Below are positions 4,524-54,644 of a DNA stretch of 64,000 bases, piece by piece. Made by a program: the position numbers and the translations under genes. This DNA comes from an uncultured Gammaproteobacteria bacterium (lineage in GTDB: Bacteria > Patescibacteriota > Patescibacteriia > Magasanikbacterales > GWA2-37-8). The first letter of the stretch is position 1. Every line of letters starts with the position of its first letter. The stretch covers positions 1,079,723 through 1,143,722 of the forward strand of contig CAZQUL010000001.1 of assembly GCA_964596525.1 (NCBI GenBank), written 5' to 3'. The notes under the pieces are model-generated. The model made no database searches and had not been told where the DNA came from. It saw only the letters and a program-made list of their open reading frames with translations.

Positions 4524-4636
4524 GTCATTGCGAGGAGCGAGGTACGAGTGATGAAGCAATCCCCTTGATAACAGAGCGGGCTCTGAAGTACGGAGGGACT
4601 GCTTCGTCCTTCGCTACGCTTCGTCCTCGCAATGAC
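4524..4636. repeat. Copy 1 of nested-palindrome MITE-like repeat (GTCATTGCGAGGA...GACGAAGCAATCCCCTTGAT...TCCTCGCAATGAC)
   Basis: Outer inverted termini gtcattgcgagga / tcctcgcaatgac, inner inverted pair gacgaagcaatcccc / gggactgcttcgtc. Same architecture at 37814, 52695 and 54507. Confidence 0.7.
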
Positions 4637-4675
4637 AGATGTTTCTCAGCTTAACATGGGAAATATCGATTGAAA

Positions 4676-24771: not shown

Positions 24772-25554
24772 TTAAATTTCCAACTCAAACGAAATATTTT
24801 TTTCAACCCATAAGAGCCCCTTCTTCGTAAGACGCGCAACATCATTTCGGAAATCAAGCCGCCCATCTTTATTTACTCCTTGCAACTGTTTGCGCAGAAC
24901 GCCTTTATTTGGGTATTCCATCCAATCAGTGAGGTCTCTTAAAGAAACCTCATTTGGAAATTTCTGATAACAAAAAACCATTGCTTTTTCTTTGGAGCCG
25001 AGTCGTGTATCAAGACACTTGAGACGACCCCCAATCTCTTCAATAATCGGAACCTTACGTTCAATTATTTTTTTGATCTCGGCCTGGGCAGCTGCTGGGC
25101 TCATTTTTGTTTCAAGTCGAATCAATTCTGCGACTATCCAATTTGCGGTATTCAGGACGAATGTCGAATCCATTTCATTTACATCGACAATACCCGGGTG
25201 AGCGACATTCCGTTTATTACGGAAATCAAGTATGAAGCCCGCAAGCGGTAGAATTTGAAGACGTAGGGCGTCCGGTAAGGTCGTATTTTTCTCAGCTGAT
25301 CGCGCTATGGTTAAGCGATCAATTTGTTTGTTTAGTGGTGTCGAGGAACCAGTATCCTTTAATTCAATAATACGCAACACAATTTCAGCGAAGCGACCAC
25401 CATCGAGTTGACTCGGCTCCCAACAACCCAAAAAATACTGCCTGTGTATTTTTTGGAATTCATTTAGGAGAAAATTTACGAGATCATTCGGCAAGCTACT
25501 TAGATGCTGGGCTAGCGGATTCATAGTTGAGGAGTTTTTCAAAAAATGCTTCAC
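24772..25554 (-). CDS. Low-GC hypothetical protein (260 aa) with possible HEPN-like Rx4-6H motif (FRNKRNVAHPG) and C-terminal wHTH-like tail
   Basis: Composition is clearly AT-richer than the flanks. Motif match is weak. Confidence 0.4.
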   Translation of the reverse strand: MKHFLKNSSTMNPLAQHLSSLPNDLVNFLLNEFQKIHRQYFLGCWEPSQLDGGRFAEIVLRIIELKDTGSSTPLNKQIDRLTIARSAEKNTTLPDALRLQILPLAGFILDFRNKRNVAHPGIVDVNEMDSTFVLNTANWIVAELIRLETKMSPAAAQAEIKKIIERKVPIIEEIGGRLKCLDTRLGSKEKAMVFCYQKFPNEVSLRDLTDWMEYPNKGVLRKQLQGVNKDGRLDFRNDVARLTKKGLLWVEKNISFELEI

Positions 25555-25903
25555 CCGTTTGGGTCAAATCACATTCCCCGTTTGATTGAACGCGGACGTA
25601 CATACCCGACGCATTGTCGAGGAGATTGGTTTTGTAGGCGCCATCAAACTTAGCATTCATCCAGGCTTTTGCTAAATCTTTCTTATTGATAAGAGATCCC
25701 AGCATTTTTTCGTGGTAACCAACAATAGCCGCAATCTTCTCAGGACCATTAGAAAATTCCCTGCCTTTTATAACCTCTCTCAGCGTTTTTGGCTTATCGC
25801 TTGCTGGCACAGCAGCACCTTGCTTGATACTTTCCAAGCGCAACAATCGACTTTCGTGATCTTTTAACTGATCGATAATTTTTTTGATCTCATCTTCAGA
25901 CAT
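25496..25903 (-). CDS. Small low-GC protein (135 aa), paralog of 25912..26325
   Basis: N-terminal coiled coil plus conserved C-terminal core (REF...K..AL.YY.E...AK...N...KAW.LT.TGE). Confidence 0.4.
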   Translation of the reverse strand: MSEDEIKKIIDQLKDHESRLLRLESIKQGAAVPASDKPKTLREVIKGREFSNGPEKIAAIVGYHEKMLGSLINKKDLAKAWMNAKFDGAYKTNLLDNASGMYVRVQSNGECDLTQTGEAFFEKLLNYESASPASK

Positions 25904-25911
25904 AGAAAAAA

Positions 25912-26325
25912 TTATTTAGTAAGGTCTTCTTCAACATACTTCTCACCAGTTGAAGTCAACACCCAGGCCTTTTTAGTATCTTTTTTCTCAGGCGCCTCCA
26001 TTATTAGACCTCGTGCGATGTTTTTGTTAACAGCATCGTTCACATTCTTAGGGCGCGGCTCTTTCGCCGCCTGGAATACAGCCACTAAATCATCAACGTT
26101 AAACGATGTCATCCCCCCTACTCGCTCGAGGTAGTAGCAAAGCGCAAGAGTTTTTTGCGTCTCGGAATTAAGTTTTTTGGTCAAGAGAAACTCCCGGGCG
26201 GAAAATTTTTTTTGAACCATTGAGCTAACAGCCGGACTACTTGATGGATTTTGCAAAAAAACCACTCCTTCAAGTTTTGCAACGCGATTCTCTAATTCAG
26301 CAAAACGTTCTTCAGAGATAGTCAT
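25912..26325 (-). CDS. Small low-GC protein (137 aa), paralog of 25496..25903
   Basis: Same architecture as the neighbouring gene. Confidence 0.4.
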   Translation of the reverse strand: MTISEERFAELENRVAKLEGVVFLQNPSSSPAVSSMVQKKFSAREFLLTKKLNSETQKTLALCYYLERVGGMTSFNVDDLVAVFQAAKEPRPKNVNDAVNKNIARGLIMEAPEKKDTKKAWVLTSTGEKYVEEDLTK

Positions 26326-26330
26326 AAAAA

Positions 26331-26735
26331 TTATTTTAGGTTAATTTTAAACTGCGAAATCAGCTCCGGAATCCGATAGGGAGGGACAAGGTACCGACCA
26401 TCTTTGTCCTGGTTAATTTTATGTTGGCTCCCCAGTATTCTAAGGCTTGATTTCACTGAACCTGCGGCCATTACTCCCATAGCGATGAGCTCGCTCGGTA
26501 GGAGACCATCTGGTTTATTAAGGTAGAGGGCGCGCGCTTTTGCAGCACACAAAATAATCTCAATTTTTTGATTATTGCCATCAATACTTGCAAACGACGA
26601 CAGAAAACCAAACTCCCCAGAAGACTCGTCAATAGAGATGAACGGCCTGACAAGATCAGCGAGTTGCTGACGATCTACAGCCCTTGCATCCTTCACAAAC
26701 AGTGAAGATAATGGATCTTTTTGGATATCTTGCAT
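26331..26735 (-). CDS. Low-GC hypothetical protein (134 aa), first gene of islet
   Basis: No recognisable motif. Tightly packed with the following genes (5-9 nt gaps). Confidence 0.4.
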   Translation of the reverse strand: MQDIQKDPLSSLFVKDARAVDRQQLADLVRPFISIDESSGEFGFLSSFASIDGNNQKIEIILCAAKARALYLNKPDGLLPSELIAMGVMAAGSVKSSLRILGSQHKINQDKDGRYLVPPYRIPELISQFKINLK

Positions 26736-26761: not shown

Positions 26762-26778
26762 CTATCTCTAGAGGATAG
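26762..26778. promoter_or_regulatory. Composite palindrome ctatc-tctagag-gatag upstream of the islet's first gene (operator candidate)
   Basis: Seen directly. Sits ~30 nt upstream of start codon 26735 on the minus strand. Confidence 0.25.
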
Positions 26779-26788
26779 CATATAGATT

Positions 26789-26883
26789 TTTTCTGTCAAC
26801 ACCAATTTGTGCGCATGGCAGTTGTTGCACGGAAGCCATCTTACTGCTCTCGAACGAACTGAAAATGAGCGTCGGACTCATAG
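26789..26883. repeat. Copy A of a ~93-bp perfect direct repeat
   Basis: tctgtcaacaccaatttgtgcgcatggcagttgttgcacggaagccatcttactgctctcgaacgaactgaaaatgagcgtcggactcatag repeated identically at 27208-27302. Confidence 0.8.
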
Positions 26884-27207
26884 AAGGGACGAAAATCCCT
26901 ATTTTCACTTATATTTTAGCCAAATAATACTAGTAATTTATATTTAAATAAGATTCTAAGATACATCTATCCCTATTTAATAGCTTAAAATATCTTAATT
27001 TAAAATTGATTTATTAGTGGAAAATAATAAAAATTACTTAAATTAAGATTAATAATAAGTAATATTTTCTTATATTAAAAAGGTTTATATGACTAATTAT
27101 CATTTTATATTTATATTATTTAGCTAATTTATAGATATATAATGTTATTTAATATATAATTGATAATATTATTATGAACCATAAATAGATAAAAATGAAT
27201 ATTATTC

Positions 27208-27302
27208 TTTTCTGTCAACACCAATTTGTGCGCATGGCAGTTGTTGCACGGAAGCCATCTTACTGCTCTCGAACGAACTGAAAATGAGCGTCGGACTCAT
27301 AG
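27208..27302. repeat. Copy B of the ~93-bp direct repeat
   Basis: Identical to copy A. The two copies bracket a ~325 bp spacer of >80 % A+T (26884-27207). Confidence 0.8.
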
Positions 27303-27310
27303 TCTAAATT

Positions 27311-27340
27311 AAAAACCTAGATAAAAATCTAGGTTTTAAT
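27311..27340. terminator. Perfect hairpin terminator
   Basis: aaaacctagataaaaatctaggtttt, followed by gcccctttttt at 27345-27360. Confidence 0.45.
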
Positions 27341-27417: not shown

Positions 27418-27831
27418 TTACTTCCCCACCGGCGGCTCCCACAACTCCACTTTATTCCCCTCCGGATCCATCACCCACCCAAACTTCCCGTATTCCGACT
27501 CATCGACCTTGTCGAGCACATTGCACCCCTCAGCCCGGAGTGCAGCAAGCAGAGCGTGCAAATCCGCGACGCGGTAATTCACCATGAACGGCGCCGTGCT
27601 TGGCTCAAAATAGTTCGTGTCGGCGTCGTTGATATTCCAGGCCGTCGTGCCCGCCGTCGGCTTGCCCTCGGCATCGACCCAATCAAACGCCGCGCCGCCC
27701 CAGCTCTGCACGTCGATACCGAGATGCTCTTTGTACCAGGCGCGGAGCTTTGCCGGGTCTTTGGCTTTAAAAAAGATGCCGCCGATGCCGGTGACACGTT
27801 TTAAAGGGGCTTTTTCGGATGAGGAATCCAT
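27418..27831 (-). CDS. VOC/glyoxalase-family protein
   Basis: VTGIGGIFFKAKDPAKLRAWYKEHLG...VELWEP. Confidence 0.55.
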   Translation of the reverse strand: MDSSSEKAPLKRVTGIGGIFFKAKDPAKLRAWYKEHLGIDVQSWGGAAFDWVDAEGKPTAGTTAWNINDADTNYFEPSTAPFMVNYRVADLHALLAALRAEGCNVLDKVDESEYGKFGWVMDPEGNKVELWEPPVGK

Positions 27832-30620: not shown

Positions 30621-31676
30621 TTATCTTTTTTCAAGAATAGCGGCAATTTCATTTAGAAGTGTGTCTAAATTCGCTTGAAAGCTTATTTGTGTTTTTGTTA
30701 CTGCTAAAACTTTTTTACTTATTTGCGTATGGAGATAATCATCGCCTATTTTTTTTGCAGTTTCATTTAAGGGTCGCGCTATATCTTTGAAACTTTTAGT
30801 ACCATACTGAGCACAGACTTCCGCAAAACTTGTCTTTTGAAAAACTGGTGGTATATGATCAAGAATCGCGCGTTGCAACATCGCACAAGAATGATAGTTT
30901 TCCAAACTATAATTGTCATCCAGTTCATTGCAGAGAGCGATCAATCTGGTCAAGTCAAATTCCTTACTATCTATTCTACTGAGACGTAAAAGTGTGTACT
31001 TATCAATATAAGCAACTCTACCATCAGGTTGGCCTTTGAATTCCTGTTCTGCGCTTTTACTTTGAGCAAATATCTTATCAATGAGAAACAAAAAATCGTT
31101 CAACTGCTCTGTAGCACCTGCCATGAATAAGGCTGTGGCATCATAATATTTATGGGTAGGAATTATTATTCCAGCACTCATTGCATCACTATCCCTTGTC
31201 ATTATTTGCCTCTTCCAATACTGATTAAAAATATCAAGTTTTGTTTGTAGATTGAATTTTTCTATCTCCACCGCTGCATCTTTCGAAATGCTTGAAAATA
31301 AAATTATTGTCTGTTTTCTTAATTTCTCGAAGTGATCTACGATTAAATCAGCCTCTTTGTCTAAGTCTTCCGGTAAGATGCCGGAATCATTTTTAATTTT
31401 TTGTAGAACTTCTTCATCACTTTTTTCATACCATCCTTCTGGAATCCCGTGGATAAGCCCCCACTCAATACTGAATCGTTTGTTATACGGTGGTGTGTCA
31501 AAGTTTCCATAAAAGAAATGACAATGTCCAGCCAAATCCGATCCGCTCCATGAGTTATTGATCAAATTACATACTGCGGCGATCTTTTTTGCTGACTCTG
31601 CGGATCTAATAAGTCGATCTAGAAGATCCTTAACTCCGTTCTTAATTTTTTCAATTTCTTCTCCCATGCTATTCAT
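30621..31676 (-). CDS. Low-GC hypothetical protein (351 aa) with C-terminal HEPN-like Rx4H motif (LQRAILDHIP); Abi-like candidate
   Basis: AT-rich codon usage unlike the flanks. Rx4-6H motif seen directly; family assignment is inference. Confidence 0.4.
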   Translation of the reverse strand: MNSMGEEIEKIKNGVKDLLDRLIRSAESAKKIAAVCNLINNSWSGSDLAGHCHFFYGNFDTPPYNKRFSIEWGLIHGIPEGWYEKSDEEVLQKIKNDSGILPEDLDKEADLIVDHFEKLRKQTIILFSSISKDAAVEIEKFNLQTKLDIFNQYWKRQIMTRDSDAMSAGIIIPTHKYYDATALFMAGATEQLNDFLFLIDKIFAQSKSAEQEFKGQPDGRVAYIDKYTLLRLSRIDSKEFDLTRLIALCNELDDNYSLENYHSCAMLQRAILDHIPPVFQKTSFAEVCAQYGTKSFKDIARPLNETAKKIGDDYLHTQISKKVLAVTKTQISFQANLDTLLNEIAAILEKR

Positions 31677-37813: not shown

Positions 37814-37919
37814 TGTCATTGCGAGAAGTGAGGAACGAACGACGAAGCAATCCCCTTGATTACACTGTGAACTCTGAATTATGAAGGGATTACTTCGTCG
37901 ACTTCCTCCTCGCAATGAC
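37814..37919. repeat. Copy 2 of nested-palindrome MITE-like repeat
   Basis: gtcattgcgagaagtgagg...gacgaagcaatccccttgattacactg...gggattacttcgtcg...cctcctcgcaatgac. Confidence 0.7.
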
Positions 37920-52694: not shown

Positions 52695-52831
52695 GTCATT
52701 GCGAGTTGCGAGTTAGACGAGCGACGAAGCAATCCCTTCGTAATTCAGCGCTCACTCTGGTATCAGGGGGATTGCCCGCCCGGCACGCCTTTGCTGCCAT
52801 GGCGGACAGGCTTCGCTACGCTCGCAATGAC
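52695..52831. repeat. Copy 3 of nested-palindrome repeat (long variant with internal GC-rich hairpin insert)
   Basis: gtcattgcgagttgcgag...gacgaagcaatccc...gggggattgcccgcccggcacgcctttgctgccatggcggacaggcttcg...ctcgcaatgac. Confidence 0.7.
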
Positions 52832-54506: not shown

Positions 54507-54644
54507 GTCATTGCGAGGAAGGAGTTAGATGACTGACGAAGCAATCCCCTTGATATCAAAGCGGGCTCTGAATTACGCAGGGATTGCCCGCCCGGCACGC
54601 CGTGCTGCCATGGCGGACGGGCTTCGTCGTGCCTCCTCGCAATA
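54507..54644. repeat. Copy 4 of nested-palindrome repeat (long variant)
   Basis: gtcattgcgaggaagg...gacgaagcaatccccttgatatcaaagcgggctctgaattacgcagggattgcccgcccggcacgccgtgctgccatggcggacgggcttcgtcgtgcctcctcgcaatag. Confidence 0.7.

Follow-up and report, generated by a model that had tools for sequence, protein, structure and literature searches.

Promoter-distal auxiliary operators and tandem promoters are the described systems closest to the module presented here. In the looping systems lac (O1/O3), gal (OE/OI), deo (deoO1/O2), and lambda (OL/OR), a second copy of a regulator site lies tens to hundreds of base pairs (bp) away; herein, the intervening sequence is unimportant and the distance matters. 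Tandem promoters—rrn P1/P2 as well as promoter duplications in experimental evolution—are promoter repeats in direct orientation upstream of one operon. The module described here belongs to an uncultured bacterium (deposited as Gammaproteobacteria; GTDB lineage Patescibacteriota, Magasanikbacterales, GWA2-37-8) and lies in a stretch of 64,000 nucleotides (nt), hereafter the window (GenBank assembly GCA_964596525.1, contig CAZQUL010000001.1, positions 1,079,723 to 1,143,722 of the forward strand). It consists of an exact direct repeat of 95 nt, the copies of which, R1 (distal) and R2 (proximal), flank an AT-rich spacer, S, immediately upstream of a cassette of four genes. The position of the predicted promoter elements shows the 95-mer to be the upstream half of the promoter of this acquired cassette, present twice. 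A duplicated promoter module, which an earlier note on this DNA had named as an alternative to an insertion scar, has thus proved correct in essence: the -35 box of the cassette promoter and the DNA upstream of this box lie within the repeat. We regard as probable that the module is a maintained cis-regulatory duplication of the promoter half, with the distal copy being an auxiliary regulator site, and not the scar of an insertion. The descriptive part of this account is much firmer than the mechanism.

By analogy, the module would work most like the auxiliary operators of lac, gal, deo, and lambda. Known auxiliary operators are, however, about 20 bp long and merely similar to each other, whereas here tracts of 48–109 nt are kept identical by conversion. 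In addition, the -35 box is part of what is duplicated, some periods are out of helical phase with others, and the regulator is putative. The likeness to tandem promoters is closest in one clade of related loci (L045, L047, and L048), where the whole promoter is duplicated. In the clade of the window, by contrast, the distal copy is not scored as a promoter, and the copies, which stand 220–420 bp apart across all loci with an AT-rich filler between them, evolve in concert.

Other systems with repeats share less with the module. As in attL/attR pairs, DNA of foreign composition at an island edge lies between two identical direct repeats, but there is no recombinase and no target in a tRNA or gene end, the repeat is island-borne, and the bracketed DNA is a noncoding spacer of 324 bp. 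Invertons (fimS, Bacteroides) resemble relatives of the cassette in which inverted repeats of 13–26 nt surround an AT-rich block of 120–160 bp upstream of the operon; in the window, the repeats are direct, the promoter found by scanning lies outside the bracketed block, no invertase is linked, and independent assemblies of the same loci showed no flipped allele. Repeats of the long terminal repeat type also carry promoters in direct orientation and stay identical over time, but they enclose a coding body, whereas here a short noncoding spacer is enclosed and reverse transcriptase and integrase are missing. Type III toxin–antitoxin loci (ToxIN) and retrons (msr-msd) have a noncoding repeat region directly upstream of a putative RNase-type effector operon in defense islands, as does the module; it differs in lacking an array of short tandem RNA repeats, a reverse transcriptase, and any RNA conserved in sequence or fold. 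Unlike in ToxIN, no terminator lies between R2 and gene 1, and the cassette has no PADLOC match. CRISPR arrays contain at least three repeats of about 24–50 nt with spacers of about 26–72 nt, compared with two copies of 95 nt and one spacer of 324 nt here; the earlier note had been correct in seeing no CRISPR-like periodicity. The module hence fails the tested defining features of attL/attR sites, CRISPR arrays, Rfam RNAs, invertons, and type III toxin–antitoxin loci. No description of the cassette or of the repeat–spacer–repeat layout was found in literature searches.

Architecture of the repeat pair and the cassette promoter

Pairwise alignment and a script define two perfectly identical copies with a start-to-start distance of 419 bp (Table 1). 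The two copies reported in the earlier note are thereby confirmed in place and orientation; its 93-mer is present in both copies and constitutes the inner 93 nt of the longer, 95-nt repeat. Identity stops sharply at both edges, with 7 of 15 positions matching in each flank. The G+C content is 47% in the repeat and 15.4% in the spacer, compared with 51.7% in the whole window, which bears out the extreme A/T richness noted before. The pair is the sole long exact repeat within the 64 kb of the window, where no tandem array was found; even with up to three mismatches allowed in the window scan, a 30-mer of the repeat matches nowhere but at these two places, with 0 matches expected in shuffles. Exact scans of viral, genome, and metagenome collections gave 0 other copies of the 95-mer.

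The genes that surround the repeat all lie on the minus strand. Going in this direction, the order is a glyoxalase/VOC-family gene, its terminator, 8 nt, R1, S, R2, a leader of 53 nt, and the four cassette genes. The perfect hairpin that had been described as following the second copy is the terminator of the VOC gene and constitutes the left limit of the module; R1 starts 8 nt past it. The placement of the module at the edge of a low-GC islet and the statement that the repeat is too long for a target-site duplication are correct.

The best sigma-70-like promoter of the region scores 10/12 in consensus matches, including an extended -10 TG, and lies 54 nt before the ATG of gene 1. Its -35 box, TTGACA, is inside R2, and its -10 box is just outside; R2 therefore supplies the -35 box together with about 85 nt of upstream DNA. 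R1 carries the same TTGACA followed by the AT-rich spacer, and the promoter scan found no -10 box after it. A near-palindrome (CTATCCTCTAGAGATAG) overlaps the -10 box and may be a candidate operator, as read from its sequence; the part CCTCTAGAG also occurs within the repeat of L014, the closest homologous locus. Inverted repeats of 5 bp inside each copy were considered as operators and rejected, their frequency being about that of chance by our own estimate. A small minus-strand open reading frame (ORF) starting exactly at the repeat edge was discarded as well: it has no homologue among 5.8 billion proteins, and the repeats of other loci have no equivalent.

Table 1. Features of the repeat module, its promoter, and the adjoining genes, in window coordinates
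Feature	Position	Strand	Description
R2, proximal copy	26789..26883	-	ends ...GGTGTTGACAGAAAA, 54 nt upstream of cassette gene 1
R1, distal copy	27208..27302	-	100% identical to R2
Spacer S	26884..27207	-	324 bp, 15% G+C
Best sigma-70-like promoter of the region	26772..26799	-	TTGACA at 26799-26794, 16-nt spacer, TGcTATCCT, predicted -10 at 26777-26772
Near-palindrome	26762..26778		CTATC(C)TCTAGAGATAG; overlaps the -10 box; read from sequence
Small hairpin	26885..26900	+	AGGGACGAAAATCCCT, then T-run; directly adjoins R2
Perfect hairpin, terminator of the VOC gene	~27311..27338		11-bp stem, AAAACCTAGAT aaaa ATCTAGGTTTT; A/T runs on both sides
Glyoxalase/VOC-family gene	27418..27831	-	host-side neighbor, outside the module; terminator precedes R1
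Gene 1	26331..26735	-	134 amino acids (aa), orphan family
Gene 2	25912..26325	-	137 aa, orphan, weak paralogue of gene 3
Gene 3	25496..25903	-	135 aa, orphan; conserved core pair with gene 4
Gene 4	24772..25524	-	probably 250 aa, from the ATG at 25524

Genomes derived from metagenomes can be misjoined at repeats, and the earlier note had asked for read support. In an independent k-mer assembly (Logan contigs of run SRR11567520), the contigs break exactly at the repeat edges: L001, on the VOC side, ends exactly 30 nt into the repeat, and L002, on the cassette side, begins exactly 30 nt before the repeat end. Stopping 30 nt inside a repeat is what a de Bruijn graph with k = 31 does when the repeat is real and branches, so that both repeat/spacer junctions exist in the reads, although the number of repeat–spacer units is unreadable from this graph. 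Since the same architecture also occurs in many unrelated assemblies made with different assemblers, the probability that the second copy is a misjoin is negligible.

Recurrence and maintenance of the layout

The DNA upstream of gene 1 was compared with itself at every fetched cassette locus (about 32 distinct loci). A direct repeat of 48–109 nt with 76–100% identity encloses an AT-rich spacer immediately upstream of the cassette in 10 of them (Table 2), the nine besides the window stemming from uncultured bacteria. A control search through the 522 kb of DNA fetched in total gave just 13 nonoverlapping direct repeats (at least 40 nt, within 700 nt), 9 of which are cassette pairs.

Table 2. Direct repeats upstream of the cassette at ten loci
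Locus	Repeat (nt)	Identity of copies	Period (bp)
Window	95	100%	419
L014	48	96%	320
L030	72	100%	321
L052	63	90%	319
L057	62-70	97-100%	319
L070	50	76%	296
L045	72	100%	286
L047	56	98%	242
L048	68	100%	233
L049	109	100%	222

The repeat sequences are unalignable between most loci, but every one includes the predicted -35 box, and what recurs is their position. In L014, L030, L052, and L057, the proximal copy ends 8–16 nt past TTGAC[AG], and a -10 box (TATAAT, TATACT, TATCAT, or TAGACT) follows just outside the repeat. These are the top-scoring promoters of each region, with 12/12, 11/12, 10/12, and 10/12 consensus matches. Thus, in the clade of the window, the repeat ends between the predicted -35 and -10 boxes, and neither in the window nor in any of these four loci did the distal copy register as a promoter in the scans. 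In L057, gene 1 is unrelated (about 23% identity), and the architecture is identical. The sequence comparisons show the repeat–spacer–repeat layout to be old and to have been maintained before related cassettes of many lineages, each locus having a sequence of its own.

The sister loci L047 and L048 illustrate how the repeat evolves. Their gene 1 DNA is 85% identical and their orthologous repeats are 86–88% identical, whereas the DNA upstream of the distal copy is unrelated and the repeat edge is shifted by 12 nt. Orthologous repeats next to unrelated upstream flanks mean that the repeat belongs to the cassette and not to the host genome; the cassette itself is horizontally acquired. We conclude from the alignments that the duplication is older than the split of L047 and L048. 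Within each locus, the copies match at 55 of 56 (L047) and 68 of 68 (L048) positions; comparison of this one sister pair shows homogenization of the copies, which is concerted evolution, brought about by gene conversion or template switching. Between the two loci, the spacer has 73% identity, compared with 72% at four-fold degenerate sites, and its sequence is hence free to drift. Homogenization is not absolute, as L052 and L070 demonstrate with copies 90% and 76% identical.

A period of 319–321 bp recurs in L014, L030, L052, and L057 despite varied lengths of the repeat (48–72 nt) and the spacer (249–272 nt) and despite unalignable sequence, which is only suggestive of a constraint on distance. 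Direct repeats this short and close are prone to deletion by slipped-strand and RecA-dependent events. Deletion would leave an intact promoter, and the retention of the pair in spite of this points to selection for the distal copy or the spacing.

Some loci without a direct repeat show a different geometry. In L033, L037, L044, L018/L019, L015/L022, and L035, which belong to other clades of the cassette family, the place equivalent to the module (about -376 to -167, counted from gene 1) has an AT-rich block of 120–160 bp, or about 300 bp in L035, between near-perfect inverted repeats of 13–26 nt. The sequence is different at every locus, but the geometry is kept, the outer span measuring about 192–202 bp in four of them; this block looks like the inverted counterpart of the direct repeat of the window. 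A profile search (nhmmer) with the spacer as a possible homologue of the AT-rich block of repeat-less loci gave only E ≥ 0.14, and this homology was rejected. The motif TTATCTAGTTC occurs in the upstream regions of L015, L021/L023, L024-L028, L034, L036-L040, and L043—forward near -325, reversed near -225, and forward near -50, compared with 0.39 matches per shuffled region—and is a candidate operator for the small proteins of the cassette. The promoter beside it has TATAAT about 7 nt before the ATG, which suggests a leaderless mRNA. The spacer of the window contains only a weak variant, TTATCTAtttatgGTTCA, near 27170-27192. In L047, another direct repeat (1952-2005 and 2368-2420; 54 nt, 93% identity, period 416) lies upstream of the cassette module and, with the tRNA-like sequence GGATCGTCTAATGGTAG, may be a small tRNA gene array.

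Mechanism and alternative explanations

In the reading we favor, selection would keep the distal copy and a set distance, and the distal copy would most likely be an auxiliary binding site for a factor that binds the promoter-upstream region. The small proteins of the cassette, putative winged-helix proteins with weakly supported predicted folds, are candidate binders. Bridging of two identical sites across a flexible AT-rich spacer could place a HEPN-type effector, which is potentially toxic, under tight and cooperative control. Several observations weigh against this mechanism. The identical tract of 95 nt is much longer than any operator needs, and the matches of the cassette protein folds are weak (Foldseek E = 0.09–1); regulator binding and looping at the repeat are proposed from sequence and structural models. 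The periods of the window (419) and L070 (296) deviate from about 320 and are out of helical phase with it, and those of the second clade are 222–286 bp. In L045, L047, and L048, the repeat takes in the entire predicted promoter plus about 20 nt of transcript and stops 19 nt short of the ATG; judged from these elements, the distal copy should transcribe the spacer, which fits a second promoter better than a decoy. Finally, about two-thirds of the cassette loci have no direct repeat and some of these have inverted repeats around an AT-rich block instead, for which reason the repeat element is not obligatory for the cassette.

The earlier note's first suggestion was an attL/attR-type duplication around a decayed or excised insertion—meaning that the 95-mer would be a host target duplicated by integration and the AT-rich 324 bp the remnant of the element. 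The geometry of the direct repeat, the extreme composition of the interior, and the location at the edge of the low-GC islet would agree with such a scar, but the interior contains neither an integrase nor an ORF: none of at least 30 aa was found within the spacer or shared with other loci, and conserved coding potential is absent on either strand. The repeat corresponds to no tRNA, tmRNA, known RNA, or gene end, with ARAGORN and Rfam returning nothing there at gathering and permissive thresholds, even at E ≤ 10. It is part of the cassette rather than the host, as deduced from L047 and L048, and it is tied to the promoter in ten loci. The spacer has no similarity elsewhere in the window and no match in phage, plasmid, and viral collections, and the whole module gave 0 matches in BLAST searches against phages and plasmids. 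An insertion scar is therefore unsupported and very improbable. Alternatively, the pair could be a functionless leftover, that is, an old partial tandem duplication of the promoter region that persists by chance and is homogenized by conversion, with a spacer of decayed junk. The unconstrained sequence of the spacer, the copies drifting apart in L052 and L070, and the lack of the repeat at most cassette loci would all be expected of it. We give this reading a slim chance because deletion-prone repeats of 50–100 bp, 250–320 bp apart, survive in small, streamlined genomes and across lineages whose gene 1 proteins are only 62–77% identical, four loci keep the period at 319–321 bp, and the spacer has no residual similarity to the DNA downstream of R2. 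A spacer derived from a decayed 5' untranslated region and gene 1 start, as a tandem duplication would leave, was tried and rejected, the local alignments being no better than those of shuffles in nine loci.

A transcribed element is unlikely, though it has the clade of L045, L047, and L048 as its best support. In this reading, the distal copy would be a second promoter, from which the spacer would be made as a noncoding RNA or as an alternative, long leader that serves, for instance, as antitoxin or regulator of the HEPN-type effector; or else the repeat would be a small RNA of the plus strand, each copy being hairpin-ended. In the clade just named, the distal copy constitutes a complete predicted promoter (-35, -10, and about 20 nt of transcript) facing the spacer; in L014, TATAAA stands 17 nt past the distal TTGACA; and in the window, a hairpin with a T-run comes after each copy on the plus strand (Table 1), and a plus-strand promoter-like site at 27132-27160 (10/12) faces R1. 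Against it stand the absence of a promoter score for the distal copy in the window, L014, L030, L052, and L057, as well as a spacer that is neutral in L047/L048, unalignable across the clade, and without an Rfam match. Folding of the repeat is no better than that of shuffles (z = +1.15 and +0.77 on the two strands), and the flanking hairpins are not conserved in other loci. The small-RNA version raised in the earlier note hence retains little support. The pair could also be a substrate of recombination, in which the 419-bp unit pops out as a circle or is deleted or amplified, acting as a heritable switch or copy-number device, while the AT-rich block would invert in the relatives with inverted repeats. 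Copies that are identical and arbitrary in sequence are what homology-dependent recombination needs. Moreover, other clades carry an AT-rich block between near-perfect inverted repeats at this position, L014, L057, and L060 have a serine or tyrosine recombinase gene in their vicinity, and the read graph is compatible with a loop. This is nevertheless rather improbable: losing the spacer and one copy regenerates the same proximal promoter with no obvious on/off change, no recombinase lies in or beside the cassette of the window, and no deleted or inverted allele was found among independent assemblies (L018 versus L019; L015, L016, L017, and L022). A broader version, distinctly unlikely, would make the repeat–spacer–repeat and its inverted equivalent an essential cis component of a HEPN/winged-helix defense or toxin–antitoxin cassette that works through sequence identity itself. 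What is conserved would then be no motif but an arbitrary sequence present in two copies, a fixed distance apart, on either side of AT-rich DNA that melts easily. Such copies could serve recombinational pop-out or inversion, a templated copying step that regenerates the repeats, or slipped-strand or cruciform DNA that senses supercoiling or DNA damage during infection.

With a regulatory duplication as the favored reading, an apparent insertion scar becomes a regulatory feature of a widespread, wholly unannotated cassette of uncultured bacteria, found mostly in Patescibacteria and often amid defense genes. Repeats that are specific to each locus, homogenized within it, recurrent in distance, and tied to the -35 side represent an unusually clean case of bacterial concerted evolution in noncoding DNA. 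For genome scans, the module is a caution that a long, perfect direct repeat at the edge of an island need not be an att site, and it gives an experimental handle on the silencing or switching of such cassettes.

The cassette and other features of the window

The four genes of the cassette (24772-26735) are tightly packed on the minus strand and have a G+C content of 40–45%. Gene 4 probably starts at the ATG rather than at the GTG of the mechanical ORF (24772-25554, 260 aa); the resulting length of 250 aa is that of more than 100 homologues, and its overlap of 29 nt with the end of gene 3 is likewise seen in L014 and other loci. The gene located 25 bp past the cassette end is, from reading its sequence, presumably malic-enzyme-like. 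Synteny through a neighboring gene of 390 aa leads to a metagenome-assembled genome (MAG) of Magasanikiibacteriota as the nearest genome (68% aa identity), the contig of which differs and ends 558 bp downstream. By this neighboring gene, the organism falls near Candidatus Magasanikiibacteriota, within Patescibacteria.

The cassette proteins have no significant sequence match in Pfam, PHROG, PADLOC, NCBIfam, or the PDB; no recombinase match was found in the first four of these, and gene 4 in particular has no Pfam match. AlphaFold models of the gene 1 and gene 4 products reach a pLDDT of 84 each. For gene 1, Foldseek returned weak matches of the winged-helix type only. The gene 4 model consists of an N-terminal helical bundle that resembles HEPN domains and a C-terminal winged helix. 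Herein, residues 1–155 match the HEPN structures 1wol, 2hsb, and 1ufb with a probability of 0.89–0.98, but with E = 0.4–1 and TM = 0.3–0.6. In the alignment of homologues, the invariant residues are D-F-R-N-x-R-x3-H, and R102-x6-H109 fits the Rx4-6H motif. The cassette may be a defense- or toxin–antitoxin-like module.

Homologues number about 40 for gene 1 (49–66% identity) and more than 145 for gene 4 (58–75% identity). Most come from Patescibacteria, and some gene 1 homologues from alphaproteobacterial and gammaproteobacterial MAGs. In general, the cassette consists of a core pair of about 138 aa and 250 aa with one or two variable small genes in front. Frequent neighbors are TIR, NERD, an SLFN-like helicase fused to an S24 peptidase domain, MazG, and Abi_C, as well as MwoI-type and further restriction–modification genes. 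In L055 (3047-4753) and L056 (1140-2846), a three-gene cassette (186, 138, and 250 aa) is found inside a type I restriction–modification operon, between hsdM and hsdS; it has a Fic gene upstream, a gap of 66 bp in front, and no repeat module. No relatives of the cassette were found in viral contigs, and tblastn of gene 4 against phages and plasmids gave 0 matches. Serine recombinase genes lie near the cassettes of L057 (1070-2298) and L060 (4277-5557), and a tyrosine integrase gene near that of L014 (12940-13908); none lies near the cassette of the window. The occurrence of such genes within a few kb of some cassettes suggests that the cassettes ride on larger mobile islands.

Apart from the module, the window contains a dispersed family of intergenic repeats of about 85 nt (GTCATTGCGAGGAGCGAGG...GAAGCAATCCCCTTGAT...) at 4524-4608, 37815-37899, 52695-52736, and 54509-54593. 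Its members are 66–83% identical, an inverted partial copy is located at 4595-4638, and the family looks like repetitive extragenic palindromic (REP) elements or miniature inverted-repeat transposable elements (MITEs). A second low-GC patch at 30–32 kb (39–44% G+C) contains an orphan gene of 351 aa (30621-31676, minus strand), for which Pfam, PHROG, and PADLOC gave no match. It is adjoined by a membrane-like orphan of 169 aa that has a homologue in the Magasanikiibacteriota contig L003.

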